From positions 1-64,000 of the IMG/VR virus record IMGVR_UViG_3300042350_001802: DNA of 64,000 nt; one strand, written 5' to 3'. The notes under the pieces were generated by a model. The model saw only the letters and a list, made by a program, of their open reading frames with translations. It had not been told where the DNA came from and ran no database searches. Shown piece after piece: positions 28,754 through 64,000 of the stretch. How positions within the stretch are numbered: position 1 is the first letter of the stretch; each line of letters starts with the position of its first letter. Source of the stretch: a virus. The position numbers and the translations under genes were made by a program.

Positions 28754-29101
28754 ATGAGACCAATTGAACCTGTACAAGTGTGGTTTAACGGTGTAGAAAT
28801 GCAAGCTAACCGTCTCAACTTGTATATTACTAATGACAATTTGAAAGACACTGCTCAGTTTTATTATGCTTTATGTGTAGAAGAAGAAATTCCTACAACT
28901 ACTACTACTACTGGAGAAGGTCCTACACCTCCCTCTGCAGTTATATCTGTAGGTCCTCCAATGAAAATTATACAAGTAACTCAAGGTAATTTAACTATGA
29001 CTGGACAAGAATACCTTGATTGGGATGAGTCTTCTGCTGGTACTATCAATGAAGCAGCTTTTGTATGGGCAGCTGGAAAGTTGAACCTTACTCTTGTTTA
29101 A
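28754..29101 (+). CDS. Hypothetical virion protein with a poly-Thr insert
   Basis: 115 aa, IEPVQVW...PTTTTTTG. Confidence 0.7.
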   Translation: MRPIEPVQVWFNGVEMQANRLNLYITNDNLKDTAQFYYALCVEEEIPTTTTTTGEGPTPPSAVISVGPPMKIIQVTQGNLTMTGQEYLDWDESSAGTINEAAFVWAAGKLNLTLV

Positions 29102-47574: not shown

Positions 47575-48612
47575 ATGCCCGCTACATTTACATTTCCATC
47601 ATCACCAACTATAGGAACATTGTATGTTTCTCCTGTTGGGGTTATGTATGTTTGGGATGGAACCTGGACAACATCTGGGTCAACTCAGACATCTAATCCA
47701 TTTAATAATAGCTTTTTGTATAGAACAATTTATACAAAGGGGTATATGACCGCAGGATACAAAAATAGTTCTCCATGGAGAAACGTTAATAAAACTATTC
47801 ATGCTATAGATTTAACAACCAACTTAGGAGATAAACTGGTTTATAGTAGTAGTTATATTGGTGGAGGATTTAGTGATTATACTAGTTATAATTATCCAAG
47901 TACTGGAGCTGTTCAAGGAACTGGTACTATAGTGGAAGCTATGAATATGGCTACTGAGTCAATGTTTTCTTTAGATTCAGCTAGATATCTTAAAACATCA
48001 CGTACCGACTGTGAAGCATTAATGACCCCCTCTTTAACTTCTGCATATATTGTTGGAGGTGGATCAGTAACAGTCGATAGACATAACTTTACAACAGATG
48101 TTATGTTTTCTGCTGGAACAGCTCCCAACTCTCCATTAGCTGGTGGAACAGCTGGTGGACTTGGTTCATTTTTTGGACAGTATAAAGGATGGGTATCTCA
48201 AGGAGCTGGTTCTAGTTTTACATTTGCTACAGAAACTTGGGCTACTGGTGGCATGAGTTGGGCTACAGATGGACAACCAAAGGGTTTATCTAGTAAGCAT
48301 GGTTATGGATATGGTGGAACAGGTTCATATCCTGGTTCAGTAAACTTAGGTAAGTATAGTGAAGCCACTGGATCAAATCTTGCAACTATTAGTAGAAATA
48401 AAACAAATGGTGAAGAAAACTGGCAGGTAGGACAGAACTGGGGGTATATGCTTGGTGCTTATGATGGGTCTGCTCAAAATAATGATGCTGGTAGACTTAA
48501 CTATTTAACGGATGTTTATACAGCATTGGGTAGTACCGCTGAACCAAAAGGACATGATGGTGCATCATCGGGTTGTTGTTCTACAGGTTCTGCAATGTTA
48601 GTTGGGTATTAA
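47575..48612 (+). CDS. Kelch-like beta-propeller protein with fibre-type N-terminus
   Basis: FPSSPTIG...YVWDG, then Gly-rich blades (GYMTAG, AYIVGG, GYMLG). Confidence 0.6.
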   Translation: MPATFTFPSSPTIGTLYVSPVGVMYVWDGTWTTSGSTQTSNPFNNSFLYRTIYTKGYMTAGYKNSSPWRNVNKTIHAIDLTTNLGDKLVYSSSYIGGGFSDYTSYNYPSTGAVQGTGTIVEAMNMATESMFSLDSARYLKTSRTDCEALMTPSLTSAYIVGGGSVTVDRHNFTTDVMFSAGTAPNSPLAGGTAGGLGSFFGQYKGWVSQGAGSSFTFATETWATGGMSWATDGQPKGLSSKHGYGYGGTGSYPGSVNLGKYSEATGSNLATISRNKTNGEENWQVGQNWGYMLGAYDGSAQNNDAGRLNYLTDVYTALGSTAEPKGHDGASSGCCSTGSAMLVGY

Positions 48613-48646
48613 TTAAAACTGATATATATTTGCTAATAAAAGATAT

Positions 48647-49189
48647 ATGAAATACTTTCTTATAAGATTCTATAAAGAGATCCCTACAATCGCGGGTATG
48701 ACCTCATTAAGTAGGTTTGATTCTTATGGTATATATCTACTCACTCCAGAAGCAGAAAATGAAATAACTCAACTTAACTTAAGTATGGAGGAAATTTCAG
48801 AAGATGAAGCTTTAATCGGAGCTAAGTTTTATTCTGTATCTAGAGACTACCGTAAAGCATATTCTGTTGTAGAAGGACTTGAACCAGATGAAGTGGGGGG
48901 ATCTAAAACTAAAGTGTATCATACAGAACATACAAGAGAGGTAACTCTTAGTTTGATGAAGAAGATTACAAAACTTAGAATAATTGATGAGTTTAATAGG
49001 AGAGAAGATCAGACGAATAAAGATACTATTTTAGATTCTGTCGATGCTTGCACTTCTATCTGGGATATTAATATTCTAAGAGAAGATCTTTTAGGAGTAG
49101 AAATGCCTGTTTATCAAGCTACTGAAATGGGTCTTTTTAATGAAAACGGTGTACGTATTGTACCTGTTAACTATAATAAAGGATTTTAA
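48647..49189 (+). CDS. Hypothetical protein
   Basis: 180 aa; TATATTTG upstream at 48625. Confidence 0.75.
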   Translation: MKYFLIRFYKEIPTIAGMTSLSRFDSYGIYLLTPEAENEITQLNLSMEEISEDEALIGAKFYSVSRDYRKAYSVVEGLEPDEVGGSKTKVYHTEHTREVTLSLMKKITKLRIIDEFNRREDQTNKDTILDSVDACTSIWDINILREDLLGVEMPVYQATEMGLFNENGVRIVPVNYNKGF

Positions 49190-49202
49190 ATAAAACTAAT
49201 AT

Positions 49203-50072
49203 ATGAGAATAGTATTAGCAGTACTGGTGATTTTATGCTTTAATATTTTTTCATTTGCTCAATATAGTAATAGTGCAATCAAACAGGGATCTGAGCAGAC
49301 TGTAAAGTCTCAGGACACGGTTAAAAATCAGTTACAGGAGATTATTGTAACTGCTAAGAAGGTTCCTTTGATGACTAAAGTTGGTCCTTATGGTCAACCA
49401 CTTTGGACAACTATTAGGATGTTTCCATCTACAAGAGTTTATGTTATGAACCCACCAGGTACAGCAATGTATGAGAAGTGGTTTGATATTAGACAACGTA
49501 GAAATGGAGCAGCTCAGATTAGGATGAGAGATGAGTTTACATTTGGTTTGGGTAAAAGAGTTCAGTTAGATCTTTATTCACATACAGTTTACGACGGTTA
49601 CAATGGTGATAAAACATTTAAGTGGAGAGGGTTTTCTTGGGAGTTTAGATATGCGTTAGCTGACTGGGGTAAAATCTGGGGTAATCCAACACTCTACTAT
49701 GAGATGAAAATGCTAGATGGTAGATGGGGTATTGAACCTAAACTTTTGTTAGGAGATAGAATAGGTAAAAGAGGTGTATGGGGATTTAATGCAATCTATG
49801 AAGCTAACCTTGGTGGAACAAAAGAAGAGCAAGAACGCGAATATGCATATACTGCATCATACGCCAATATCATTAACAGTGATTTATCTCTTGGTGTTTC
49901 ACATATGTTTAGATACAATGATTTTGAAGGAGGATCTAAAGAATGGTATATAGGACCGTTGCTTCAATATCGCTTTAGTAATAAAGGTTATTTAAATATT
50001 GAACATATGCCAGGTCTGAACCAAGACGCAAAACAGTCTAGAACGCTTATTATTTTTGGATGGAGATTCTAA
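49203..50072 (+). CDS. Outer-membrane beta-barrel protein with a TonB-box-like segment
   Basis: Sec signal peptide, LQEIIVTA, amphipathic strands, C-terminal FGWRF. Confidence 0.75.
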   Translation: MRIVLAVLVILCFNIFSFAQYSNSAIKQGSEQTVKSQDTVKNQLQEIIVTAKKVPLMTKVGPYGQPLWTTIRMFPSTRVYVMNPPGTAMYEKWFDIRQRRNGAAQIRMRDEFTFGLGKRVQLDLYSHTVYDGYNGDKTFKWRGFSWEFRYALADWGKIWGNPTLYYEMKMLDGRWGIEPKLLLGDRIGKRGVWGFNAIYEANLGGTKEEQEREYAYTASYANIINSDLSLGVSHMFRYNDFEGGSKEWYIGPLLQYRFSNKGYLNIEHMPGLNQDAKQSRTLIIFGWRF

Positions 50073-50082
50073 ATAAAAAACC

Positions 50083-50796
50083 ATGGAAAAAAAAGATGTT
50101 TTAAACTTAGTAGAAAGTTACGGAGGATGGAGCATGAGCGACTTCCAAAGTCGTTATTTTGTAGTAAACTCACAGGTTACTGACTATCGTAGAGTTAGAC
50201 AAGCTTTATTAGAGATTGAAACACGTATTGCTGCTAAAAAGCAAATCATTCGTGAATGTAAAAGATCTGAAGTTAAACTAAAGATTAAGGAAAGGGATAT
50301 TGCAGCTGAGTCTCAAGATCTTGAAAAAGAACTTATTCTTTTAGACATTGATCAGCTTCACTATGATATTTCTGTATATAAGAAAAGACTAAGGGTTGTA
50401 GAAGAAGAGCTTGATGAATTTGCAAAGCTTGTACTTGAGTTAGTACCTTCTTTAGCAGAACTAGAAACCTATAAGGAACATAATGAAGAACTAGAAAGAG
50501 AATACTGGATTTACCGTATGGCAAAGCAAGCTAGTGTAGATTTGGTGACAACTGGAAGAATTGGTGCAGGTAACTTAGATTCGATTGCTATGATGAGACC
50601 TAAAGATCAAGCTCTTACAATTGGTTCTGCTCTACTCAACTCAAAGAATCTCACTGCAGGTATTAATATGATTGAACAAGCTATTAATACCAATAGTGGT
50701 CTTCTTGATAATAACTTTTCAGGACTGTTTGGAGAAAAAGATCTTATTGCGCTAATATCAGATAAAAAGGAAAAAACAGATGGCGAAGATATTTAG
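50083..50796 (+). CDS. Coiled-coil hypothetical protein
   Basis: MSDFQSRYFVVNSQVT..RQALLE; GRIGAGN. Confidence 0.75.
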   Translation: MEKKDVLNLVESYGGWSMSDFQSRYFVVNSQVTDYRRVRQALLEIETRIAAKKQIIRECKRSEVKLKIKERDIAAESQDLEKELILLDIDQLHYDISVYKKRLRVVEEELDEFAKLVLELVPSLAELETYKEHNEELEREYWIYRMAKQASVDLVTTGRIGAGNLDSIAMMRPKDQALTIGSALLNSKNLTAGINMIEQAINTNSGLLDNNFSGLFGEKDLIALISDKKEKTDGEDI

Positions 50797-52390
50797 TCTA
50801 CCAATCAATCCTAAATTATCTGTAAAACAGTTTGAAGAGTTTATAAGTTTTTGTGACAAGTATAAAGACTACATTTCAGATATATACTTTACATGCAGAA
50901 TCCCTCCTTTTACACAAGATGCAATGGGAGATCTGTTTGTTTCAGAGGATGATCCTCAATATATGATTGATGTAGCATTGTATATCCAGGAAACAACTGG
51001 TATTACAGCTTCTGCAACGTTTAATAATATATCCGTTAGACCTACGCAGGAGAACTTAGATCTTTGGATAGAATCGTTTAAACCTCTATATGCTAAAGGT
51101 GTTCGGTTATGTACATTACCGTTTAACCATTGGCTTATGACAGGTCAGATTCAAAAGGAGTTTCCGGAGCTGGAAGTTAGAGCTTCTATCTTGATGGATA
51201 CAAAGACACCAACAGATGTCTATAACGTGGTATCAAGTGGTTTCCATTCTGTTTGTATTGATAGAGCTTTGATGCGAGATCATGATACAATAAAGACTAT
51301 AGTTAAGATAAAGCGTAAAAAACCTTTTAAACTTGTCTTATTAGCTAACGAAGGATGCTTGGGTAAGTGTCCAGTGATGTCTGAACACTACCACTATAAT
51401 AATACCAGAACCACTGATAGTCAATACTTTAACAATCCTATTAGTCGAGTGTCATGTCCTAGATGGGATGTTACTAACAAAGCTGTTGTACTAAAGACTG
51501 CAGATATCCCAGCTTGGAAAGAAGACTGGGATGAGTTTCTTGACATGGGAGTAGATATCTTTAAACTGCACGGTAGAGAGAACGTAAACAAGGTTTACGA
51601 AACTATGGAAATAGTAATAAACTATGCAGAAAATAAAAGTATGCTCTATGATATAGATCTTAAGATTAGTGAAAGTAATGCTAATAAGTGGAGAAAGATT
51701 ATTAAGAACTGTAAGTTTGAGTGTTGGAGTTGTAACTTTTGTGATAAAATAGCTGGAGGTACATTGGATGAAAAAGCAGTTAGTGTAGCAGATATTTTAG
51801 TTACAAGTGTCAACTCAGACTTTGAAACAACTTTACCAGGGTTATCTAGTCCTAGAGTTAATAAGTTGCTAAATGAACTTGGTAAAATTTCAACAGCATA
51901 TTTAGAAGTTGGATGTCTTAGTGGTAAAACGTTTTCTAGTGCTATTGCGGGTAATAAGCTTAATGCTTATGCTGTAGATAACTGGAAAGAAGGAATAGGT
52001 GCTGAGAATGGGTCTATCGAGATAACAACTACTAAAGAAGATTTTATTAAAAACATCTTACCCTATAAAGGAGAGAATAAGATTAAGGTTTTTAACTGTG
52101 ACTTTATAGATGTAGATAAGACTAATATTAAGGATATAGATCTGTTTTTTTATGATGGTGATCATTCATATGAAAGCACTAAACTATCTGTAGAATATTT
52201 TGCTGATACGTTTGCTGAGGAATGCGTTCTTGTTTTTGATGATGCTAACTGGAAAGGAGTGGTGGATGGTGCTGTTGCAGGTATTCAGAAAGCTGGTCTA
52301 ACTATTGTATACGAGAAAAAAATGCTAAACGCAATAGAAGACGAAGATATGTGGTGGAATGGATTATATATAGTGGTGGTTAAAAAGTAA
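50780..52390 (+). CDS. U32-family (Fe-S) domain fused to a class I SAM methyltransferase
   Basis: LLANEGCLGKCP, FKLHGRE, CKFECWSCNFC; YLEVGC-SG, FFYDGDHSYE, VFDD. Confidence 0.75.
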   Translation: MAKIFSLPINPKLSVKQFEEFISFCDKYKDYISDIYFTCRIPPFTQDAMGDLFVSEDDPQYMIDVALYIQETTGITASATFNNISVRPTQENLDLWIESFKPLYAKGVRLCTLPFNHWLMTGQIQKEFPELEVRASILMDTKTPTDVYNVVSSGFHSVCIDRALMRDHDTIKTIVKIKRKKPFKLVLLANEGCLGKCPVMSEHYHYNNTRTTDSQYFNNPISRVSCPRWDVTNKAVVLKTADIPAWKEDWDEFLDMGVDIFKLHGRENVNKVYETMEIVINYAENKSMLYDIDLKISESNANKWRKIIKNCKFECWSCNFCDKIAGGTLDEKAVSVADILVTSVNSDFETTLPGLSSPRVNKLLNELGKISTAYLEVGCLSGKTFSSAIAGNKLNAYAVDNWKEGIGAENGSIEITTTKEDFIKNILPYKGENKIKVFNCDFIDVDKTNIKDIDLFFYDGDHSYESTKLSVEYFADTFAEECVLVFDDANWKGVVDGAVAGIQKAGLTIVYEKKMLNAIEDEDMWWNGLYIVVVKK

Positions 52391-52392
52391 TT

Positions 52393-53265
52393 ATGGAAAC
52401 GTTAGTTAAACTGTTAGATGGAATATGGTTTGTTCCTTTTGTAGCAGCTATTATGGTTTTAACTAACCTTATTAATGCTAAAGGATACTTTATACCATTC
52501 TATACCTTTTTAGAAAGAAAGATAAAGTCAAAAAGGTTACTGGTAGCTTTGATTAGCGCAGTATCAGGAGTTCTTCCGATTCCAGGTAGGGTTATTATTA
52601 GTGCTGGAGCTCTTGATACTTTAGCACCAGATGACAAGAGGAGAAAGAACTTTGGTGTGATAAACTACCTATCTACACACCACTACTATCTCTGGTCACC
52701 ATTAGAAGCTACTGTACTTATTCCGCTTTCTGTACTTGGTATAAGCTACTTCTACTTCTTGTCTTTGATTGCTCCTTTGCTGATAACTGTTATTGCGTTT
52801 ACACTATATTATATATTCTATGTCATTAAGGAAGAAGATGTTATAATAAACAAGATGGAGCGTAAAAACCCAGGTGTTATAAAACCTATAAAGTGGGATG
52901 TAGTGGTACTGACAGCTTTGGTTATTATTACGGGTAATGCTATAAAAATGCACTCAAATACTATTGTAGACTTCTTTATGTCCTTTAATAGTAGTGTCTT
53001 TTTTGCGAGTGTGATAGCTTTTGCAACTAGTTTCATTTTAGGATCTAGTAGCAAATTTGCAGGAATAACAGCTTTACTTACTACGGTTTTTGGTATAAAC
53101 TATCTACCGTTGTTCTTTGCACTGGGGTACTCAGGATACTTAATAAGCCCTATGCACAAATGTTTGGTGATTACAAAAAGTTATTTTAACTTATATAGAG
53201 AGCTATATAAGATCCTAATACTTATAATTATAGTATTGATTATAGTAGGATGTTTATTAGTTTAA
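52393..53265 (+). CDS. Multi-pass membrane permease (ion transporter superfamily-like)
   Basis: Many hydrophobic segments; GVLPIPGR, THHYYLWSPLE, GYLISPMHKC. Confidence 0.7.
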   Translation: METLVKLLDGIWFVPFVAAIMVLTNLINAKGYFIPFYTFLERKIKSKRLLVALISAVSGVLPIPGRVIISAGALDTLAPDDKRRKNFGVINYLSTHHYYLWSPLEATVLIPLSVLGISYFYFLSLIAPLLITVIAFTLYYIFYVIKEEDVIINKMERKNPGVIKPIKWDVVVLTALVIITGNAIKMHSNTIVDFFMSFNSSVFFASVIAFATSFILGSSSKFAGITALLTTVFGINYLPLFFALGYSGYLISPMHKCLVITKSYFNLYRELYKILILIIIVLIIVGCLLV

Positions 53266-53283: not shown

Positions 53284-54117
53284 ATGGCAACTTTACTAAC
53301 AACCGTAATTAATGGTTCTTTGACGGTAGGTACTGGTTTAAATGCTAGTGATATTTACATGAATGATAGTGATGAAGGTACGCGTAGAATACACTGTAAT
53401 TCAAACCGTGTAGGATTTTTAAATCAAGGATCAGGATGGGGATCATATTGTGATGATACAGGAAACTGGGTGTCAGATTATGCAATATATTGTAGTAACT
53501 GGTTTAGAACATATGGGTTTACAGGAATGTATTCTGAGAGTTATGGATCTCATATTAGACCAGTAGCATTGGCAACTCATGGCACATGGGAAATATATGG
53601 GTATACTAAGAATGGTTATAATGGATTAAATATATATGATGCACAAGGTTATATCAATAACTATATGCATGAAAGTGGTAATGGTGGACTATACCTTGAA
53701 AATCAAAGTGGACGTTGGGCATGGTATTGGCATAGAAGTAATATATGTTTAGGTCTTGGTAATTCTACAACATCTAATTCATACCGTGTGTATGTTGATG
53801 GTGGTCTTTATGCAACTGGGGATGTAGTGGCATATTCAGATAGTCGTAAAAAGACTGATGTTATAACTATTAATAATGCTCTTGAAATAGTGACAAATCT
53901 TCGTGGTGTGTTTTACACTAAAGTGGGGGAAGAAGAAAAGGGTAGAAAAACGGGTGTTATTGCTCAGGAAATTAATAAGGTACTTCCAGAAGTAGTAACA
54001 TATGCTGCTGATGTTGATGAATATGGTGTAGCTTATGGAAACATTGTAGGTGTACTTATTGAAGCTATAAAAGAGCAACAGAAACAAATTGAAGAACTGA
54101 AAAAAATGTTGAAATAA
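53284..54117 (+). CDS. Short tail fibre with S74 chaperone
   Basis: NWFRTYG...; YSDSRKK...GVIAQE...VAYGN. Confidence 0.85.
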   Translation: MATLLTTVINGSLTVGTGLNASDIYMNDSDEGTRRIHCNSNRVGFLNQGSGWGSYCDDTGNWVSDYAIYCSNWFRTYGFTGMYSESYGSHIRPVALATHGTWEIYGYTKNGYNGLNIYDAQGYINNYMHESGNGGLYLENQSGRWAWYWHRSNICLGLGNSTTSNSYRVYVDGGLYATGDVVAYSDSRKKTDVITINNALEIVTNLRGVFYTKVGEEEKGRKTGVIAQEINKVLPEVVTYAADVDEYGVAYGNIVGVLIEAIKEQQKQIEELKKMLK

Positions 54118-54118
54118 T

Positions 54119-54733
54119 ATGTGTCTTCCTGCGTCTGGTACTATATCGATTAGTCAGATCCGTAATGAGATATATAATAACGGATGTGGACCTAGTACTT
54201 ATTCTTTAGGTGCTCTTGCAGGGTATGCCGGGTTTCCTGCTAATCCAGATGCTATGAGTGAGTTTTATAACTATTGTTGTAATTGTAACTTTGCAAACTT
54301 TTGTTATCATGCTACAGATTGTTATATGGCGTGTAACAGTACTCCATGTACAGATGTAGTAACATATTGGATTGGCACATTAACAGTGGGGACTGTCCTG
54401 CGTAATGGTGATTGTACAGGAAGTGGAGCATCAAATGGTTATTATGCTTATGCTGGAAACTGTTATACAGTTACAGGAGGAGCGGGTGTTGTAGCAAGTG
54501 TAACATCATGTCCTCCTCCAACAACTACAACCACTACATCTGGAACAACTACAACAACCACTACCGCAGCACCTGGAAACTGTGTCGATCACCAAGCAAC
54601 TGCTAGTGGATTTATGACATGGGACGATTGTTCTGGTAATATTCAAAGTCAGTATCTTATAGTTGGAGATATATTCTGTGCCATAGTGGGTACAGTTACT
54701 GGAAACTATATTAATCTTAATGTACCTTGTTAA
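54119..54733 (+). CDS. Cys-rich virion protein with a poly-Thr linker
   Basis: LPASGTISISQIRNE N-terminus, often found after S74 fibres; PPPTTTTTTSGTTTTTTT. Confidence 0.75.
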   Translation: MCLPASGTISISQIRNEIYNNGCGPSTYSLGALAGYAGFPANPDAMSEFYNYCCNCNFANFCYHATDCYMACNSTPCTDVVTYWIGTLTVGTVLRNGDCTGSGASNGYYAYAGNCYTVTGGAGVVASVTSCPPPTTTTTTSGTTTTTTTAAPGNCVDHQATASGFMTWDDCSGNIQSQYLIVGDIFCAIVGTVTGNYINLNVPC

Positions 54734-54753
54734 ACCTTTAAAACTTATATATT

Positions 54754-55314
54754 ATGCCTACTTATTCTTTTAAACGTGCTCCTGGAGCAGTAACTGCAGA
54801 TTATAAACTTATTGAGGGAGGAGATAAATATAATTTATCTCGTGGAACTCTTACTGATCCTAATAACATTAGTGTTGCTAGTGTTGTTAATTATTCTGTA
54901 GCAAATAATATTATAGCTGCTTCTACCTCATGGTCTTCAATTAGTGCTCAAGTATATGAAACCAGAAAAGTAGATTTTGTATCATATTTGATAAATAGTG
55001 TTCCTTCTGAGTTTATTCCTGAAAGTGAAATATCATATTGGACTTTTGAGAAAAAAACATTTTTTGCTGTTACTACTTCAACAAAAAGTTATTCATTTTC
55101 AGAAACTATTAATTACAATGTAGATACTCTTGAGTTTAATGTTATTAGAAATAACAATCCTGCATATGTAAAAGCTCTTTATGAATTTTTAAAAAATACA
55201 CCAGGATTTGAACCATTTCCTGTTGAAGCATATAATAATGTAAGATATGAAGTTCTTCAGACGCTTTCAAATGAACAAACAGATATTCCTATTGATTTTG
55301 AGGTAGCAGGGTAA
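54754..55314 (+). CDS. Hypothetical protein
   Basis: 186 aa ORF. Confidence 0.7.
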   Translation: MPTYSFKRAPGAVTADYKLIEGGDKYNLSRGTLTDPNNISVASVVNYSVANNIIAASTSWSSISAQVYETRKVDFVSYLINSVPSEFIPESEISYWTFEKKTFFAVTTSTKSYSFSETINYNVDTLEFNVIRNNNPAYVKALYEFLKNTPGFEPFPVEAYNNVRYEVLQTLSNEQTDIPIDFEVAG

Positions 55315-55400
55315 AATGTTTATCCACATATGTTGATATGTCATTTAAAAACTCTAGAATAATACTTGTATATTCGTATTAGATTAATCTACAAACATTT

Positions 55401-55910
55401 ATGGAAAAAATTACATTGAAACTTTTTGAGTTCTACAATCTAGATGCAGAACTCAACGGTCTTGTCAACCAATCGACAGGTGAAACCATCACTGCTGGTT
55501 TGCTTCGTGAAAAACTTCCTCTTGTTACAAAGTACTGGTTAACAGAACTTGGCAAGAAGGTAGCTGCTGAAAAAACTGCTATTGAGGAACTTAAGAATGA
55601 TCTTATCAAAAAGTATGGTAAAGAAGATGATAACGGTAAAATCTTTATTCCCATGCTTGTCGATGACCTTGATGGTAATGGAAATCCTATTAAAGACACA
55701 GATGCTGAGGAAAACGAAGTGATTCGTAAAAAGTTAAACCCTGACTATCAGCAATTTGAAAAGGAGTTTAATGAACTTCTCCAGACTGAAAAGGAGCTGG
55801 AGTACAAACCCGTTCTACTTTCTGACCTAGAAAAGGTTGAGACAGAAGAAAACTACGTAACCCTGTTTAAGCTTGTAAAAGCTGAGGATGGGAAGGTAGT
55901 ACCTATGTAA
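55401..55910 (+). CDS. Tail assembly chaperone-like protein (DUF1617-like)
   Basis: LPLVTKYWL...LIKKYG; own promoter (55366) and terminator. Confidence 0.55.
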   Translation: MEKITLKLFEFYNLDAELNGLVNQSTGETITAGLLREKLPLVTKYWLTELGKKVAAEKTAIEELKNDLIKKYGKEDDNGKIFIPMLVDDLDGNGNPIKDTDAEENEVIRKKLNPDYQQFEKEFNELLQTEKELEYKPVLLSDLEKVETEENYVTLFKLVKAEDGKVVPM

Positions 55911-55934
55911 TCCTCTACTCTGTCAAACATTGAA

Positions 55935-55964
55935 GACCACCTCATTCCTGGGGTGGTTTTTTTT
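55935..55964 (+). terminator. Intrinsic terminator
   Basis: GACCACCTCA-TTCC-TGGGGTGGTT followed by a T run. Confidence 0.75.
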
Positions 55965-55982
55965 GTTTATATCCCTCAAAAA

Positions 55983-56004
55983 TTGTATATTGTATTGTAG
56001 ACTA
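55983..56004 (+). promoter_or_regulatory. Late promoter motif
   Basis: TTGTATATTGTATTGTAGACTA, near-identical to 29194-29215. Confidence 0.7.
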
Positions 56005-56063
56005 TTCTGTTATGTCTGCATTATATCTGTTCTTATTTATAACAACCTGATATTCAGTATATT

Positions 56064-57332
56064 ATGCCTCCTATTAGCTCAAATATAAACAAGGAGACTT
56101 GCTCACCAATATCTTCCAACTGTATAGTGTGGCAAGGACCTGATCTAAAGTGTATCGATGTATGCACTGGTCAACCTCTATCTGAGACAGTTTACAATGT
56201 TGCAATGAAGGTCTGCGAACTGCAGAGTCAACTAGATCTTTCTGATCTAGATCTTAAATGTATCATTGATACTTGTTTAGCTTGTCCTCAACCTCAAAAG
56301 ATATTAGCAATTGTATTGCAACTTATTATAGATAAGGTATGTGACCTACAAGAAATCATTGATAACCTAACAACAGCTTCTACAACATCCGACCCATTGG
56401 TAAGGATGGCAACTTGCTTTCAATATACAGATCCATCTACTGGTGACCTAGTTAAGGATCTTCCTCACACACAGTACACCAAACGTATTGGTGTAGAGGT
56501 TTGTAACCTTGCTAATCAGATTACGGGTATACTCTTAGATATTACCAATTTACAAGATCAGGTGGATGCTCTAGATGTACGTGTTACTATTCTTGAGAAT
56601 CAGACACTTCCCGAAGTGACCCTTACATGTATCAATCCGGGATTACAACCTATGGATGATGCAATTGAAGCTATTGAAGCTGATTATTGTAGTTTAAAAG
56701 GTGTTCTTGGATCAAATACTGATGTAGCAGCTATTGCTGGTGCTGAACCCACTACGCTTCCTGTAATGTCATTAGTTAACCCTGCTACAGCTTTATGGTC
56801 TACAGCTTCTGCTAATGCTGCAGAGTCTTTAGAGAAGATGTGGTTGGCTATTAATGATCTTAGAAGTGCTGTTAAACTCATCCAAGATAACTGCTGTAAG
56901 ATTACTTGTGAGGACATCCTTATTGACTTTGATGTTGAGGTTAATGTAGCAGATGATGAGTTGACACTGTTCTTCTTACCAAAGAGCTTCTTGCCAACTG
57001 GATTTGCAGATTGTAATACAACACTTGGAACTAAGTTTATTATTACAGACACTGCAGGACATGAGTCTTACTTTTACATTAAACTCAGAGAAGATGTATT
57101 TGATGATCCTACAGTACTTCAAGATGGATATCTATTATCTATACCAGGAGCTATAGATCCTACATTAGGTATGACTATCACATCTGATGTTTGCGTAACA
57201 GATGGTAGCACTACATGCGTTAAATGCGTACGTGTAGAGGTTGCTCCTAAAGGTTGTGCATATTGTGAACTTACAGCAACTGGTCCTAAAGAAGGTGGTG
57301 GTACTGCTGTTGTCACTTACACAGTTGGTTAA
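56064..57332 (+). CDS. Cys-rich structural protein with a coiled coil
   Basis: CSPISSNCIVWQGPDLKC; heptads LQDQVDALDVRVTILE. Confidence 0.75.
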   Translation: MPPISSNINKETCSPISSNCIVWQGPDLKCIDVCTGQPLSETVYNVAMKVCELQSQLDLSDLDLKCIIDTCLACPQPQKILAIVLQLIIDKVCDLQEIIDNLTTASTTSDPLVRMATCFQYTDPSTGDLVKDLPHTQYTKRIGVEVCNLANQITGILLDITNLQDQVDALDVRVTILENQTLPEVTLTCINPGLQPMDDAIEAIEADYCSLKGVLGSNTDVAAIAGAEPTTLPVMSLVNPATALWSTASANAAESLEKMWLAINDLRSAVKLIQDNCCKITCEDILIDFDVEVNVADDELTLFFLPKSFLPTGFADCNTTLGTKFIITDTAGHESYFYIKLREDVFDDPTVLQDGYLLSIPGAIDPTLGMTITSDVCVTDGSTTCVKCVRVEVAPKGCAYCELTATGPKEGGGTAVVTYTVG

Positions 57333-57361
57333 TATTTTACATTTTTATAAACTCGCTATAT

Positions 57362-57880
57362 ATGTCTACTACTCAATCTATAACTTTAACTCCTGGACAA
57401 ACCTTTGTTCTTCCAGCAGGTGCTGTTGTTACAGGACTGTTTGTTGATGGAGCAATATCAGTTACATCTTCTTGTGATAATCTTCCACCTCCTGGTGAGT
57501 TTGTATGCGGGCATTTTTACATGAATATAGATGATGATGATAACCCAAGTCACCCTAATGATGAAGAATCTACTGAATTTACAAGTATTAAAATTGGTGA
57601 TACAACATATCCTTTAAATGGTCTTTTGTTAGATCAGACTGTTACTAACTTAAATGCACTACTTAATATTGGTGCTGTATTTACGTTTACATCAATTACT
57701 CGTTATATAATTGATGATGATCCATCAAATGATAAAAGAATGGCTATTAAATTATATTTTAAAGTTCCAGAAACACTTGTTGATACACTTGAGTTAATTA
57801 TTACTGGTAATAGCGGAGAACCTGAACCTACAACTCAGATATATAGACCTGTTGAGGTGGGACCTTGTTCAGAATCCTAA
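57362..57880 (+). CDS. Hypothetical structural protein
   Basis: 172 aa ORF. Confidence 0.7.
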   Translation: MSTTQSITLTPGQTFVLPAGAVVTGLFVDGAISVTSSCDNLPPPGEFVCGHFYMNIDDDDNPSHPNDEESTEFTSIKIGDTTYPLNGLLLDQTVTNLNALLNIGAVFTFTSITRYIIDDDPSNDKRMAIKLYFKVPETLVDTLELIITGNSGEPEPTTQIYRPVEVGPCSES

Positions 57881-57896
57881 TTAAAACTACTAGAAA

Positions 57897-58997
57897 ATGT
57901 CATCTTGTAATTGTAATAATCCTTGGCACGATAAGTGGTGTCCTTCTTTTTTACCACCTGCTGAAACATGTCCAGATGGAGAACCTTGTGATGAGCAAGT
58001 ATCTACAGACTGCGTAATTTATACAGGTCCTAGTATTCCTTGTTATGGAATTACTACAGGTATGACAGTTACTCAACTTCTTTCAATATTATACAGTTCA
58101 ATATATCCAAATTGTAGCACTACAACAACCACATTGAATCCTTGTGGATTATGTAGTGGATTTGCTGCTATTCCCACTATTGCTTGTTTATATAATCTTA
58201 AAATAGAATTTTTATATATAGCTGTTACCTCGGATCTTTCTTTATTACCATCGGGATATGTACACCCTTGTCCAGATTCAATAGCTACACATAATTGTAA
58301 CCGTGCTTTACATGAAGCATATTTAGCTAATTATTATATTGGAGATGTTTACATGAATAACGCGGATGGTGAATGTGGTTCTTTAACAGATTATGGGACA
58401 CCGATATGTAAAGATTTTAAAAACACACCTGCAGCTTTAAGACCAAATAAAATATGGAATGGTAACACTCATAGTAGATATACATCTATTACATTAGATA
58501 TGGATCAAGCTATAGAAATAGCTGCTGCTAATAGTAATAATTCAAATATTGTTTTTGATTTACAACACGCTGTTGGCAAATATGGTATTTCTTGTGATGG
58601 TACACAAGTTTCTCATGATCACGAAGTATGGGTGAGAATAACAAGAGCAGATGGGGTTGTTATCTATAATGGATGTGACACAGGAAATCCGTTTACCGTA
58701 AATGTTTGTCAATTAACTCCTTATACTACAACAACAACAACAATACCGGTTACAACAACGACAACATTGTCTTGTGCAACTTGTAATACATATTCAGTTA
58801 ATAATACAGGTGCTACTCCAGTTTATGTAACATATCGTATTTGTGGTTCAAATACATATAACACTCAACTTGTAAATAATGGATCAAGCGTTACAATTTG
58901 TGCTTGCACAGGATCTATAGCTGCTCCTACAGGATCTTCAGTAACAATAACAAATACTGGTGTCTGTGTTCCAACTACAACAACTACCACCGTGTAA
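57897..58997 (+). CDS. Cys-rich, poly-Thr protein
   Basis: DCVIYTGPSIPC module; Thr tracts between Cys domains. Confidence 0.75.
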   Translation: MSSCNCNNPWHDKWCPSFLPPAETCPDGEPCDEQVSTDCVIYTGPSIPCYGITTGMTVTQLLSILYSSIYPNCSTTTTTLNPCGLCSGFAAIPTIACLYNLKIEFLYIAVTSDLSLLPSGYVHPCPDSIATHNCNRALHEAYLANYYIGDVYMNNADGECGSLTDYGTPICKDFKNTPAALRPNKIWNGNTHSRYTSITLDMDQAIEIAAANSNNSNIVFDLQHAVGKYGISCDGTQVSHDHEVWVRITRADGVVIYNGCDTGNPFTVNVCQLTPYTTTTTTIPVTTTTTLSCATCNTYSVNNTGATPVYVTYRICGSNTYNTQLVNNGSSVTICACTGSIAAPTGSSVTITNTGVCVPTTTTTTV

Positions 58998-59012
58998 TAT
59001 AAAATATTTGAC

Positions 59013-60029
59013 ATGCCATTTTCAGTAAGTATATCATTATCAGGATTAGGTGCTAATACAGGACCTTTTAACTTATTATCTAATGCATCTGGCTCATTTG
59101 TTGTTTTTATGACAGGTGTTAGCAAATCTTTAATTGCTTCACCAGCAATATTTACAGTTTTAGTTCCTGATAATACAACCATTATTAGAGTACAGTCCAC
59201 AGGTACATGTTCAACATTTATTGACCTTTTTGTAATTGGAGGACCTTTACCACCAACCACAACTACTACAACATCTGGAACTACCACTACTACTACATCA
59301 GGTGGATCAACAACCACCACCACAACAGTGAGTGGTCCGACAACTACGACAACTACATCTGGCGGATCAACAACTACTTCGACTACTGGGTCACCATCAA
59401 CTACGACTACTACTATATTAGTACCCACTACAACTACTACCACATCTGGAGCAACACCGACAACTACTACAAGTAGTACTACTTCTACAACATCTACTAG
59501 TTCTACAACTACAAGCACTAGTACTACTACCACAACAATAGAACCGACTACTACAACGACCAGTTCAACAACTAGTACAACATCTACAACAAGTTCTACA
59601 TCAACAACTACAACTGTTGAACCTACAACTACAACCACATCTTCTACTAGTACTACAACTACTGAAGAACCCACAACAACTACTACTAGTACTACATTAG
59701 AGCCAACTACAACTACTACAACTACAGAGTGTTTAAATCCTTGTTACGAAACTGAGTATAGTGTAAGTGGAGATGGAACTGCTGAATGGTTTAGTTGTAA
59801 TCAACAATCTGGACCTCCTAACACTCAAGCTGTTAGTACAGGAACATATTCGTTCTGTCATGATGGAAGTGGTGTAGTATTCTATAATGGTGCATCTGGG
59901 ACACCAATTGGTACTCCAACTATTTGTGGATGTAATGAACCACCTCCTACAACTACAACTTCAACAAGTACAACTACCACATTAGAACCAACTACTACTA
60001 CTACTTTTACAACATTAAATCCTGAATAA
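59013..60029 (+). CDS. Mucin-like Thr/Ser/Pro-rich protein
   Basis: About 160 aa near-continuous T/S/P stretch plus a small Cys domain. Confidence 0.8.
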   Translation: MPFSVSISLSGLGANTGPFNLLSNASGSFVVFMTGVSKSLIASPAIFTVLVPDNTTIIRVQSTGTCSTFIDLFVIGGPLPPTTTTTTSGTTTTTTSGGSTTTTTTVSGPTTTTTTSGGSTTTSTTGSPSTTTTTILVPTTTTTTSGATPTTTTSSTTSTTSTSSTTTSTSTTTTTIEPTTTTTSSTTSTTSTTSSTSTTTTVEPTTTTTSSTSTTTTEEPTTTTTSTTLEPTTTTTTTECLNPCYETEYSVSGDGTAEWFSCNQQSGPPNTQAVSTGTYSFCHDGSGVVFYNGASGTPIGTPTICGCNEPPPTTTTSTSTTTTLEPTTTTTFTTLNPE

Positions 60030-60039
60030 ACGGAAAACT

Positions 60040-60264
60040 ATGAGCAATATAACTGAATGTAAATCTCCTTGTTATAATCAAGAATATATGGTTAACGGGG
60101 TTGGTGTTGCAGTATTCACAGAATGTAAAGGTTCTTCATCTATTTCAGTATTTGTTGAAACAGGATCATATACATTTTGTCATAATGGATCAGGAGTTGT
60201 TTTTAAAGGTAGTCTCTTTGCTTTTCCTGTTGGGGAAAAAGTAGTATGTGGATGCAACGATTAA
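60040..60264 (+). CDS. Stand-alone paralogue of the Cys domain of the previous gene
   Basis: ECKSPCY..EY.V.G.G.A...TGSYTFCHNGSGVVF...CGCN. Confidence 0.75.
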   Translation: MSNITECKSPCYNQEYMVNGVGVAVFTECKGSSSISVFVETGSYTFCHNGSGVVFKGSLFAFPVGEKVVCGCND

Positions 60265-60285
60265 TACACCTGAAGTAAAGTAAGC

Positions 60286-61752
60286 ATGTCTTGTAATTGT
60301 AACAATCAGTATGTTTTATGTGATCCTCCCTGTCCTAATAGTTCAGGAACGACTACATCGTCGACTACAACAACTACTACTTTATGTCTAGATGCTGAAG
60401 TTTGTGTAGATGTTAAAAAAGATATATGTGTAGTTCATCCTGGGAGTACATGTTATGGAATAGAGGCTCTTACTGATCTTAATACGCTAATATTAAATTT
60501 AATCAGTTTACTTCCTACCCCAACAGCATGTTTGACCACAACAACTACTACTGTCAAACCTACTACAACAACAAGTACAACATTAGTTCCCACTACTACA
60601 ACTACTACTTGTATTTGTCCTACAACAACGACAAGTACAAGTACATCTACAACATCTACAACCACACTTGCTCCGTGTAGTTGTTTAACATTTAGTATTA
60701 AAAATATTACTACTTCTACACAAAAGTATTCATATGAGAATTGTTCTCATGTGCAGATTAACAATGTAAATATTGCTGCTGGTGTTACACAGATTATATG
60801 TGTATGTAATGAAAATCTAGTTTATGATCGTACTAAGTTTATAGTGATTGCTACCGGACAAGGGTGTAATACTTCTACAACTACATCCACTAGCACATCT
60901 ACTACTAGTACTACCAGTAGTTCTACAACAACTACAACAACAAATCCTTGTCCTGCATGTAACACTTATAAGATACAATCTACATCTCTACCTGCATCAT
61001 GGCTAGGTAAGAGATGCGATGATGGGGTTGTTGTAAGCTATAACTTTACAAGCGTTGGTCAAATTATTACAACTCCTTGTATTTGTTCTACTTCTTTAGT
61101 AGTAAGCAACGCTTCTGTAAAAGAAACTACAAACTGTATTGGAACTACTACAACTTCTACAAGCACTTCTACTACATCTACAACTACAGCAGCTCCAACA
61201 ACTACAACTACTACAATAGCTTGTTTACAATATATTCTTTCTAGTCCTACTGGAGGATATGCAACCGCTACATCTTGTATTGGGGAAGAAGTTATTATTT
61301 CTGTACCTGTTATAACACCGGTGGTAACTCCTTGTGTACAGGTTGGGTCTCTTGTATTACATGAAGCTGTGATTGATTATAGTATTCCTTGTGGTGGAAC
61401 TACAAGCACTACAACAAGTACTAGCACTACAACCACTTTACCTGCATGCGAATGCTTCTCTATAGAGAACCTAACAGAATTAACTGAAGGAGCTGTGATT
61501 ATACCTTGTGGTAGTAATGATCCTTTAGAGGTTAGTATTGCTCCATTTACAATCAATAGTTACTGTGTTAAATACGGAACTGTTCCTTATGAGCAATCAG
61601 GGTCTAGTCTGAACATTGTAAGATGTTACACATTTACATGTACTTCAAATATAGATTGTACTGGATGTATTGATACTACAACGACAACTACAACAGCTCC
61701 GACTACAACTACCACTACAGAAATACCAACAACCACTACAACTACAATATAA
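60286..61752 (+). CDS. Mucin-like protein: Cys domains separated by poly-Thr/Ser linkers
   Basis: Several T/S tracts alternating with about four C-x-x-[YF]-x-[IL] domains. Confidence 0.8.
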   Translation: MSCNCNNQYVLCDPPCPNSSGTTTSSTTTTTTLCLDAEVCVDVKKDICVVHPGSTCYGIEALTDLNTLILNLISLLPTPTACLTTTTTTVKPTTTTSTTLVPTTTTTTCICPTTTTSTSTSTTSTTTLAPCSCLTFSIKNITTSTQKYSYENCSHVQINNVNIAAGVTQIICVCNENLVYDRTKFIVIATGQGCNTSTTTSTSTSTTSTTSSSTTTTTTNPCPACNTYKIQSTSLPASWLGKRCDDGVVVSYNFTSVGQIITTPCICSTSLVVSNASVKETTNCIGTTTTSTSTSTTSTTTAAPTTTTTTIACLQYILSSPTGGYATATSCIGEEVIISVPVITPVVTPCVQVGSLVLHEAVIDYSIPCGGTTSTTTSTSTTTTLPACECFSIENLTELTEGAVIIPCGSNDPLEVSIAPFTINSYCVKYGTVPYEQSGSSLNIVRCYTFTCTSNIDCTGCIDTTTTTTTAPTTTTTTEIPTTTTTTI

Positions 61753-61783
61753 TAAGATTGTATATTTGTAGAAAACCAACATT

Positions 61784-62716
61784 ATGAAATTTGTCTGTGC
61801 ACAACCAGCGATAGACTATTACGCTTGGCAAGTTGAGGTGATGATTCTCAACTTTATCAGAAACGGAGTAAACGCAAATGACATACATATAGTATGTGGC
61901 TATTATGGATCTGTCCCAGAAAGATGGAGAAAATTAGCTAATACATACAACTATGTGTGTTTTTTCTTTTATCCGGATGATCGTCCTAAAAAGGGTTATA
62001 TACCAAGCATTCGTCCTTACATTTTACATAAACACTGGATAGCTCGTCCTGAGTTAGAAAAGGAAACAGTGTTCTATCATGATTCTGATATTATTTTAAG
62101 TAAACCTTTTGCTTTCCAACATCTTTCAGAAGGAGATACTTGCTATGTAGCTGATACTATTAGTTACATAGGAGCTAATTATGTACGTAGTAAAGGTGAG
62201 CACTATTTAGATATTATGACATCTATTGTAGGTGTCGATAAGCAACTAGTTATAGATAACGAAAAAGATAGTGGTGGTGCTCAGTATATCATTAAAGATA
62301 TAGATGCACTTTTTTGGGAAACTATGTATCATGATGTTGAAGAGATGTATACCACTGTAAATCAAATGATTGCGGAAGATAAAGCTAAAGATCCATCACA
62401 TCATGAGATTCAAATATGGTGCGCTGACATGTGGTGTTTACTTTGGGGACTTTGGAAGCGCGGTAAAGAGGTGAAAGTTACACAAGAACTATCTTTTTCT
62501 TGGGGGACATCTAATATAGAGCAGTGGGATATGCATAATATCTTTCACAATGCTGGTGTAACTCACGAAAGAGCTAATGAATTATTCTACAAAGGAGCAT
62601 ATATACATACACTTCCTTTTGATGATGTAAGTAAAAAGACTTATAGTGATAAGTTTTGTTCTATTAAGTATGTAGATGAAATCTTAAAAACAAAGGAGGT
62701 GACATGTTTAAAATAA
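61784..62716 (+). CDS. Glycosyltransferase resembling peptidyl-Ser/Hyp O-glycosyltransferases (SGT1/HPAT, GT96/GT95-like)
   Basis: YYAWQ, YIPSIRPYILHKHW, VFYHDSDII (DxD), GGAQYII, WCADMW. Confidence 0.65.
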   Translation: MKFVCAQPAIDYYAWQVEVMILNFIRNGVNANDIHIVCGYYGSVPERWRKLANTYNYVCFFFYPDDRPKKGYIPSIRPYILHKHWIARPELEKETVFYHDSDIILSKPFAFQHLSEGDTCYVADTISYIGANYVRSKGEHYLDIMTSIVGVDKQLVIDNEKDSGGAQYIIKDIDALFWETMYHDVEEMYTTVNQMIAEDKAKDPSHHEIQIWCADMWCLLWGLWKRGKEVKVTQELSFSWGTSNIEQWDMHNIFHNAGVTHERANELFYKGAYIHTLPFDDVSKKTYSDKFCSIKYVDEILKTKEVTCLK

Positions 62717-63177
62717 ATAGTGAAGAACCAAAAGAGCATTGGTCATTTTTAGATATATCTGGAAAGATTGTATTAGATCTAGGATGTGGTAAGTTCTACT
62801 CATCTATATCTACAGCACAGTGGTTTTTAAATGAGGGTGCTGCAAAGGTAATAGGGGTAGATCTTTCTAAAGAAGGTATTGAAGACTCTAAACTTGTAGC
62901 ATATGCTAAAGCTGTTTCTAGTAAAGAAGACCTTGAATACTTTCTGCATTATATGCCAGAGATTATTAAGTGTGATATTGAAGGTGCTGAAATATATTTT
63001 GATGAGATTGAACAGCTTCCTACATCTGTAAAACAGTTTGCTGTAGAATACCACGATAACAATCTTAAGACAATCTGTGAGAAAGCTATTCAAAGATGGG
63101 GTTTTACTAATGTTGAACTATATCAGTTGTTTAACGAAAATACAGACCGAGTGGGGGTCTTACACGCATGGAAATAA
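62704..63177 (+). CDS. SAM-dependent methyltransferase (FkbM-like)
   Basis: VLDLGCG, IKCDIEGAE, VEYH. Confidence 0.75.
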   Translation: MFKINSEEPKEHWSFLDISGKIVLDLGCGKFYSSISTAQWFLNEGAAKVIGVDLSKEGIEDSKLVAYAKAVSSKEDLEYFLHYMPEIIKCDIEGAEIYFDEIEQLPTSVKQFAVEYHDNNLKTICEKAIQRWGFTNVELYQLFNENTDRVGVLHAWK

Positions 63178-64000
63178 TTAAAGCAACATACGGTGGTGCA
63201 GATGTTACATCTGTTATAAAAGCTAGAATTAAGAATGGACAGCTAAGGATGAAAGTGTCTAACGATACTTTAGGTGACCCAGCTCCAGGTACTTTTAAGT
63301 TTTTAGAAGTGATTCATTCTGAGGGTATTAAGAAAGTTCCAGAAGGTTCCTACATCACTCTTCCAGAATCACAGATTAACAAACTTGGTATCTGGTATTC
63401 TAATAACAACCATGATAAAACAGTTAGGGAATCCGTAATGAATCTTCAACGATTTGAAAACGTCGCGGATATTCTTACATGCGTATGGAATCCCATACCT
63501 GGAAATCCTTTCTATGAGGTGAGTGCTATGACTAAAAGTAGCAGTCATCTCAATATCGTAATCCAGATCTTACAACTTTTATATGCTGCAAAGTCTAGTG
63601 GTAAGTATAAGTATGTCAGCTTTTTAGAGCATGATGTATTGTATCCAGATGGATACTTTAACTTCCCTGACTTTGAGACTGGCATCATGACTAATATGAA
63701 CTACATTGGTATTTGCGAAGCAGGTTTCCAGAGAAAGACAGCTAACCATGAACCTCTTCATCAGATGACAATGATCTTTACAGAAGCTATAGATCACTTT
63801 GAAAACTTAGTAAAGGAAGCTATAGAAAAAGGTGGTGTGCTTGTAGAACCTAATCCAGGTAGAAAACAGTGGATGTGTGCAAATCCTGCAATCCATGTAA
63901 ATCACGGTAGACACTTTACATCCCACTTTAGTATATACAGTAGGGATACATATGAAGAAGATGCTTTCTGGGGAAAAGCTGATTCTTTGATTAATAAACT
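63168..64000 (+). CDS. Lectin-like N-domain plus GT-A glycosyltransferase (partial, runs off the window)
   Basis: Hand translation MEIIKATYGGADVT...LGDPAPGTFKFLEV...YVSFLEHDVLYPDGYF; open to 64000. Confidence 0.65.
   Translation, partial: MEIIKATYGGADVTSVIKARIKNGQLRMKVSNDTLGDPAPGTFKFLEVIHSEGIKKVPEGSYITLPESQINKLGIWYSNNNHDKTVRESVMNLQRFENVADILTCVWNPIPGNPFYEVSAMTKSSSHLNIVIQILQLLYAAKSSGKYKYVSFLEHDVLYPDGYFNFPDFETGIMTNMNYIGICEAGFQRKTANHEPLHQMTMIFTEAIDHFENLVKEAIEKGGVLVEPNPGRKQWMCANPAIHVNHGRHFTSHFSIYSRDTYEEDAFWGKADSLINK

Follow-up and report, generated by a model that had tools for sequence, protein, structure and literature searches.

A soluble glycosyltransferase linked to poly-threonine proteins in a crAss-like phage genome: a candidate phage-encoded O-glycosylation system

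Phage-encoded glycosyltransferases (GTs) are described, in the available parts of three papers, as glycosylating the capsid and tail tube proteins of mycobacteriophages Che8, Corndog and Myrna (PMC12363180, PMC11256854, PMC12619734), with the glycans located at protein C-termini (available part of PMC12619734). In plants, the hydroxyproline (Hyp) arabinosyltransferase HPAT (GT95, PF23452) and SGT1/SERGT1 (GT96) are presented, in excerpts of PMC7933510, as Golgi-membrane-bound enzymes that prime hydroxy-amino-acid-rich proteins. Here, we analyzed a window of 64,000 nucleotides, the first 64 kb of the IMG/VR virus record IMGVR_UViG_3300042350_001802, in which open reading frames (ORFs) for four poly-Thr proteins (starting at 54119, 57897, 59013 and 60286) are followed by ORFs for a GT (61784), a methyltransferase (62704) and a second GT (63168), all on the + strand; the 63168 ORF ends at 64007, 7 nt beyond the window. 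Genomic comparisons strongly support this putative O-glycosylation system as a real feature, with a biochemistry that is predicted.

Tailed-phage virion glycosylation has, as far as we found in the literature, been shown only in mycobacteriophages, for which Freeman et al. 2023 in Cell Host Microbe is reportedly the source study. Like the mycobacteriophage cassettes, the locus in the window combines several GTs with a methyltransferase domain (Che8 gp108, GT2 plus Methyltransf_24/TylF; Corndog gp35). However, the profile of phrog_4417, the family of the first GT, matched none of the three genomes of Che8, Corndog and Myrna (best HMM score 4 bits), no homology to Che8 gp108-110, Corndog gp36-38 or the Myrna GTs was detected, Che8 gp110 and Corndog gp38 are GT25-like, unlike 61784, and the capsid and tail proteins of Che8 and Corndog have no poly-Thr tail. 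The system described here instead has a different enzyme family and a visible tag, a dedicated multi-site Thr tract as candidate acceptor, and is found in Bacteroidota-type and Firmicutes phages. It is therefore predicted to work like mycobacteriophage virion glycosylation but is not a member of that system. A literature search with thin coverage of subscription journals, so that an earlier mention is possible, found no paper tying poly-Thr virion tails or phrog_4417 to glycosylation, and the pairing is not described in the available parts of PMC6821194, PMC12494034 and PMC8008677.

Four proteins of the locus are candidate acceptors. The first (54119..54733), encoded directly behind the tail fibre gene at 53284-54117, is a Cys-rich protein of 204 aa with one TTTTTTSGTTTTTTT linker; the second (57897..58997; 366 aa) has a Cys-rich N-module and T5-T6 runs between domains; the third (59013..60029; 338 aa, 39% Thr) is mucin-like, with a central Thr/Ser/Pro stalk of ~160 aa; and the fourth (60286..61752; 488 aa, 27% Thr, 35 Cys) carries an N-module and small domains on Thr/Ser linkers. 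The genes and tracts picked out by the sequence-only reading are thus present, but its description of long Thr/Ser/Pro tracts between Cys-rich domains fits them only in part: the longest T/S runs span 26 residues in 59013 and 24 in 60286 but 6-7 in 54119 and 57897, and the 59013 protein has only 7 Cys. Runs of at least five residues hold 13, 22, 67 and 49 Thr in the 54119, 57897, 59013 and 60286 proteins, compared to shuffle means of 0.04, 0.15, 9.75 and 2.69, and for each protein none of 2000 within-protein shuffles equalled the observed Thr clustering, confirming that it is not due to chance. Thr codons in the runs (ACA 82, ACT 79, ACC 20, ACG 6) are used near the genome background, and 51 of 152 neighbouring Thr codons are identical (0.34, against 0.38 expected). 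Since codon use follows the genome and adjacent codons are no more alike than by chance, a microsatellite origin was ruled out, in agreement with the earlier view of the mixed codons as a mark of selection at the protein level. Contigs of run X9, which is not flagged as a possible source of the record, reproduced 54376-60470 in two overlapping pieces, and the sequence up to 64000 in shorter ones, with zero differences; the tracts are therefore not an assembly artefact. Neither a signal peptide nor a clear transmembrane segment was detected in the candidate acceptors or the enzymes, whereas two nearby control genes have them. The isolated inter-tract domains matched no Pfam family.

The first GT (61784..62716, + strand, 310 aa) is a soluble, predicted priming Thr-O-glycosyltransferase of GT-A type that carries a DxD (D100/D102) and an HNAG motif. 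It matched the PHROG 4417 HMM over its full length (E 1.1e-68, profile positions 1-292 of 293), a family of >1,000 clusters at 50% identity. The motifs noted earlier (WQ, RP..HW, D100-x-D102 and WCADM, the last for W-x-x-[D/E]-M) were all found in 61784, most of their residues being invariant or nearly so; alignment A1 took in 56 of 61 rows. D100 is kept in 99% and D102 in 100% of 207 sequences, and the DxD lies behind a hydrophobic strand (95-99). Structural modelling assigns 61784 a GT-A fold, with GTs scoring 4-5 Z units above phosphotransferases among its structural matches. This fold places it in the neighbourhood of the GT8/GT24 enzymes, and its fold neighbours include the lipopolysaccharide (LPS)/O-antigen enzymes LgtC and WbbM; compared to glycogenin, LgtC, UGGT and the Skp1 galactosyltransferase Gat1, identity is 8-15% at an rmsd of 3.5-4 A, with no Pfam or PDB sequence match, and the common fold does not give the substrate. 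No match was found for 61784 among Pfam families, HPAT included, for the GT profile in a PDB sequence search, or for either GT in NCBIfam.

The sequence-only reading had called this enzyme SGT1/HPAT-like from a motif order that we take to be typical of those plant enzymes. This identity was not upheld. PF23452 matched neither 61784 nor any member in scans of 56, 61, 74 and 88 sequences; a single member of ~345 scanned (P0267) aligned with PF23452 positions 9-230 of 307 (E 1.3e-4) at 21.9 bits, below the curated cut-off of 23.9 bits. HPAT members make up 10% of an Atlas neighbour cluster (at 0.97) of the GT. Plant enzymes were absent from the PDB fold lists for 61784 and were reached neither by a family search of its own genome nor by two walks to distant members. 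In contrast to HPAT and SGT1, 61784 is soluble and predicted to be cytoplasmic, its maximum 19-residue hydropathy of 0.85 giving no Golgi-type membrane anchor, and its candidate acceptor is Thr rather than Hyp or Ser. By these HMM and topology comparisons HPAT membership was rejected, leaving a remote, sub-threshold resemblance, although the enzyme is predicted to act in the manner of HPAT and SGT1.

Starting from the GT, a T5+ ORF was found in 64 of 80 GT loci compared to 6 of 80 poly-D/E control loci. Counted by 70% clusters, 29 of 33 GT clusters had such an ORF, directly upstream of the GT in 25; in an apparent exception, G061, the tracts lie elsewhere in the genome. By tblastn, the GT occurs in 77 cultured phage records, mostly of Firmicutes phages and with no mycobacteriophage among them. 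All 11 of these that we inspected encode poly-Thr. Usually the tract forms a bare tail at the C-terminus of the major capsid, tail tube or decoration protein, and the GT is inserted right behind one of the genes so tagged. It lies among structural genes in 10 of the 11, whereas in Iacchus it belongs to a two-gene poly-Thr insert beside replication genes. No other GT-like gene was seen in the inspected head-tail regions, which come from phages of at least four Firmicutes host genera. In Enterococcus phage 9183 (L469:5790-5890), the major capsid gene ends at CCCAAAA, and the -1 frame adds a poly-Thr tail of ~30 residues. Programmed frameshifts are known in Lactobacillus and Listeria phages, and by analogy we infer that CCCAAAA is such a site, in which case only some subunits would carry the tag. 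The GT-negative phage Bassarid has the same slippery site with an Ala/Thr/Gly-rich extension (L504:1290-1640).

The cleanest comparison came from relatives matched by a structural gene and not by the GT. The sequence-only reading had proposed co-occurrence of the GT with poly-Thr genes in related phages as a check, and in these relatives the two were largely present or absent together. Among bIL285 tail protein loci, poly-Thr tail and GT are both present in 14 and both absent in 66, with zero discordant; in one relative at 98% identity (L349), the GT is gone from its slot and the tails are gone from capsid and tail proteins alike. Coetzeevirus R3.3 has the GT and the tails, whereas both are missing from the head-tail module of Bassarid and from two Streptococcus relatives of phiFL1A. 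The 51 crAss-like relatives include 7 GT-positive loci, and every one of these has poly-Thr genes in this slot; of the 44 GT-negative ones, 38 have none and 6 have one run, mostly elsewhere. A whole-record comparison, with L463 left out, agreed with this result. L428 has neither GT nor tracts, though it is nested in a GT-positive group of the tail-gene tree. The Cys-rich N-module, the most telling case, occurs both with tracts and without them: its ORFs contain poly-Thr in 15 of 15 distinct cases from GT-positive loci and 0 of 26 from GT-negative loci, and orthologues of 56064 do so in 4 of 5 cases with the GT and 0 of 33 cases without it. In all, some five independent events agree in direction, and the phages concerned infect hosts of two phyla.

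Several observations count against a simple coupling of GT and tracts. The 14 positives of the bIL285 type are almost copies of one another, and 3 changes, at least 2 of them forced, suffice for the crAss tail-gene tree, so that the independent events number only about five. In GT-positive G013, Ser residues interrupt the tracts, which leaves 0 T6 matches, and 4 of the 33 GT clusters lack a nearby tract, at least one of them (L062/L064/L068) having merely 3-4 residue Thr linkers. In Staphylococcus phage vB-SscS-F1 (L472:1047-2162), the long poly-Thr repeat is on an annotated assembly protease that may not be surface-exposed. When we started from poly-Thr, in a 1-in-64 sample of IMG/VR poly-Thr matches (41 of 49 poly-Thr and 42 of 50 control records taken in), the GT was present in 7 of 41 random virus records compared to 1 of 42 controls (p 0.03) and, at the locus level, in 7 of 80 compared to 1 of 80 (p 0.06); the loci with flanks numbered 80 among 125 pattern loci and 80 among 124. 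The linkage is thus asymmetric: a phage with the GT almost always has tracts, but the presence of tracts does not predict a phrog_4417 GT. By eye, many GT-negative tracts are on proteins with signal-peptide-like N-termini or belong to likely eukaryotic viruses. G066 (74% complete; L092) has poly-Thr on capsid, tail tube and other structural genes without a phrog_4417 member; it encodes a GT2, a GT4-like protein, two methyltransferases, a sulfotransferase and a GH130-like protein (L499:1324-1938, L501:554-4173, L501:12949-13599) and is possibly a second, independent tag-reading system. Finally, five Bacteroidota chromosomal homologues lack a poly-Thr acceptor in their clusters.

These chromosomal homologues (L486:3690-12620, L487:2730-10871, L490:2289-4399, L492:8001-10569 and L494:4679-16844), from Chitinophaga, Dysgonomonas and Pedobacter, form their own clade (support 99), and in three the GT domain is fused to a GT7C/GT2-like domain. 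L486 and L487 resemble clusters for ribosomally synthesized and post-translationally modified peptides (RiPPs), with a GG-leader peptide containing Ser and Cys, a radical S-adenosylmethionine (rSAM)/SPASM maturase, a C39-ABC exporter and a LanC-like gene, L486 also having a GT14; the other three loci have some of these genes. The glycocin enzymes known so far belong to GT2. The L486/L487-type clusters are like glycocin-type RiPP clusters in these neighbours and are candidates for glycosylated RiPPs. This context fits a peptide acceptor, yet the family is not confined to poly-Thr. In some phages, a radical SAM/SPASM gene is directly behind the GT or fused to it (L060:10909-11955, L021:10906-11949, P0137), echoing the bacterial RiPP context.

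As noted earlier, an overlapping three-gene block lies directly downstream of the poly-Thr genes; it begins 32 nt past the 60286 stop, with overlaps of 13 and 10 nt. Its second gene (62704..63177, + strand) encodes a class I SAM methyltransferase of 157 aa with LDLGCG and KxDIEG motifs, predicted to methylate glycan. It had been labelled FkbM-like, an assignment that rests on one motif, KxDIEG, which we take to be FkbM-like and which is kept in 4 of 4 sequences. The FkbM HMMs PF05050 and TIGR01444 did not match 62704, Methyltransf_31 did (E 1e-6), and the label was not supported as given; in 4 related loci, however, the cassette does contain a true FkbM gene. With just 9 loci carrying a homologue, 62704 counts as an accessory gene. 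The third gene (63168..64000 in the window, + strand, 279 aa) encodes a predicted elongating GT with a SUEL-lectin-like N-domain and a GT-A-like domain with an invariant EHD, much as the sequence-only reading had it. The similarity of its N-terminus to SUEL/rhamnose-binding lectins (5h4s, E 3.2e-14 as a sum over three repeats; CSL3, 1.2e-7) covers only ~30-40 residues around GDP..G..KYL, and PF02140 (SUEL) matches 1 of 20 family members, at E 0.09. Its Atlas model gave TM 0.49-0.58 with GT2 and GT6 cluster models. A 63168 homologue is present in 4 of the 7 GT-positive crAss-like loci picked by tail gene (two by the N-terminal part only) and in 0 of the 44 GT-negative ones, and tblastn found no match among 50,697 phage records. 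Across relatives, the slot behind the first GT varies between GT2, GT6, GT7, GT29, GT32, GT4, rSAM and methyltransferases, which are either encoded next to it (21 of 34 loci) or fused to it (72 of 90 downstream-slot ORFs were taken in). A fixed first enzyme followed by changing partners is what one would expect of a primer and its elongators.

Taken together, we consider it likely that, late in infection, the soluble GT primes Thr with a host nucleotide sugar; the lectin-GT would then lengthen the glycan and the methyltransferase cap it, leaving glycosylated stalks that project from the particle. The lack of signal peptides would place enzymes and acceptors together in the cytoplasm. There, the 61784 GT would attach the first sugar to the Thr runs of the four upstream proteins, Thr being the presumed acceptor and host nucleotide sugars the presumed donors; extension by 63168 would follow, and then methylation by 62704. 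In the Firmicutes head-tail module the enzyme stands alone and so would be the primer by itself, and aquatic phages add exchangeable GT2, GT6, GT7, GT29, GT32 and methyltransferase genes. As for purpose, the glycans would most likely form a hydrated coat that resists proteases, makes the stalks stiffer and alters adhesion or recognition. The core of the earlier proposal, O-glycan priming on poly-Thr proteins by a phage GT and extension by its neighbours, thus has good support from the fold, the two-way co-occurrence and the variable GT/methyltransferase partners; its SGT1/HPAT, FkbM and virion assignments were not supported as put forward, and its ideas of O-methylation and of glycan mimicry toward host Sus receptors are speculative.

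It seems unlikely that the tracts are unmodified flexible linkers and that the cassette modifies host surface glycan, LPS/capsule or phage DNA while travelling in the same mobile structural module. LgtC and WbbM among the fold neighbours, the 34 of 41 poly-Thr virus records without the GT, the chromosomal homologues without poly-Thr and the host-surface modification proposed for Gratiaviridae late-module GTs (available part of PMC8008677) would all fit this explanation. Yet in matched relatives, from different host phyla, distinct genes for capsid, tail tube and decoration proteins carry a tail exactly where the GT is present; a T6-T10 stretch that ends the protein has nothing to link; neither a transmembrane segment nor a signal peptide was detected in the enzymes; and the GT is among structural genes in nearly all inspected cultured phages. 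Also unlikely is an enzyme that adds something other than a simple O-glycoside, for example a sugar-1-phosphate (Stealth/GNPTAB-like), or that elongates a host-primed sugar: phosphotransferases score well below GTs, the single Pfam resemblance is to a peptide-priming family, and as the sole GT-like gene in Firmicutes head-tail regions the enzyme would need a suitable host primer in all four-plus genera.

The sequence-only reading had further placed the poly-Thr proteins on the virion, which now rests on gene position, a fibre-like neighbour model and analogy with cultured phages. That neighbour (56064..57332, + strand, 422 aa) has no poly-Thr and shares a Cys-rich N-module of ~50 residues with 57897 and 60286. 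Its monomer model shows long helices ending in an FN3-like sandwich and is of mediocre quality (pLDDT 72.8, pTM 0.40). Model matches were weak and generic (FN3, best E 2.7e-3; sigma-1/fibritin, E 0.003-0.008), with none in the PDB at E<=1e-3; tblastn of 54119, 56064 and 57897 against the 50,697 phage records found no cultured homologue, and the four window proteins have no PHROG match. These results speak against a virion location and would suit proteins that are glycosylated by the GT but act as soluble decoys or assembly factors freed at lysis. We regard this as improbable, since the genes lie between an S74 tail-fibre gene and virion structural genes, the N-module is common to the helical, FN3-tipped 56064 family, which with the slot is kept in most crAss-like relatives, GT-negative ones included, and the tagged proteins of cultured phages are capsid and tail proteins. 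In addition, the available part of PMC10172136 describes for crAss001 flexible fibres docked by short N-terminal segments and a tail that uses disulfides. On these grounds, the four window proteins are probably virion fibre or decoration proteins.

A broader reading that joins these observations is possible but doubtful. The phrog_4417 family would be a new CAZy-level family, a viral and bacterial sister of plant GT95/GT96, whose self-sufficient cytoplasmic enzyme reads a portable poly-Thr 'glyco-tag' on any exposed virion protein, in Bacteroidota to Firmicutes phages; programmed frameshifting would tune tag density, swaps of downstream transferases and methyltransferases would switch virion glycan 'serotypes', and Bacteroidota would have co-opted the enzyme for RiPP glycosylation. 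If glycosylation of the tracts is correct, mucin-like glycan coats would be common on aquatic, dairy and therapy-relevant phages and predictable from genomes alone, which would matter for adsorption, decay, grazing and recognition by antibodies; glycoengineering would also gain a useful tool, one soluble Thr-O-priming enzyme with its short tag, and the family might indicate the origin of plant HPAT/SGT1. These ideas can be tested in laboratory phages, namely Lactococcus 1706 and bIL285 and Lacticaseibacillus R3.3 compared to Bassarid.

The record is 127,227 bp long, has direct terminal repeats and is classed as complete. A Pfam scan identified a Crass-type major capsid protein at 30519-32147 (PF23898, E 7e-34), indicating a Crassvirales-like phage, and from membership of this order we infer a Bacteroidota host (available part of PMC10136315). 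The metagenome runs listed as containing the sequence are from lakes or freshwater, with no RNA run among those listed. The cassette is flanked on one side by S74-chaperone tail fibre genes (44048 and 53284) and on the other by an exonuclease gene and then virion structural genes (66102-72856). Within the cassette, a Cys-containing mini-protein of 74 aa (60040..60264, + strand), conserved in L418 and absent from the sequence-only reading, resembles the C-terminal domain of 59013 by eye. Between the tail fibre genes, a six-gene block (47575-53265) encodes phrog_1417, 1604, 1409 and 1458 proteins, a DUF401-like membrane protein and a signal-peptide-bearing protein (at 49203); the phrog_1458 protein has a C-terminal Methyltransf_24 domain. 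In phage vB-SscS-F1, moreover, the major tail gene is broken up by a gene that looks unrelated. In siphovirus-like small genomes (L062:3623-6679, L080:3894-6614, L081:7271-9991), the GT is directly behind a 900-1000-aa tail-region protein with short interrupted Thr linkers (TTT, TTSTT), which suggests that T3-T4 may suffice as acceptor. Two small proteins outside the cassette (28754-29101 in the window and 124795-125415 in the genome) have one T6 run each and are possible extra acceptors.

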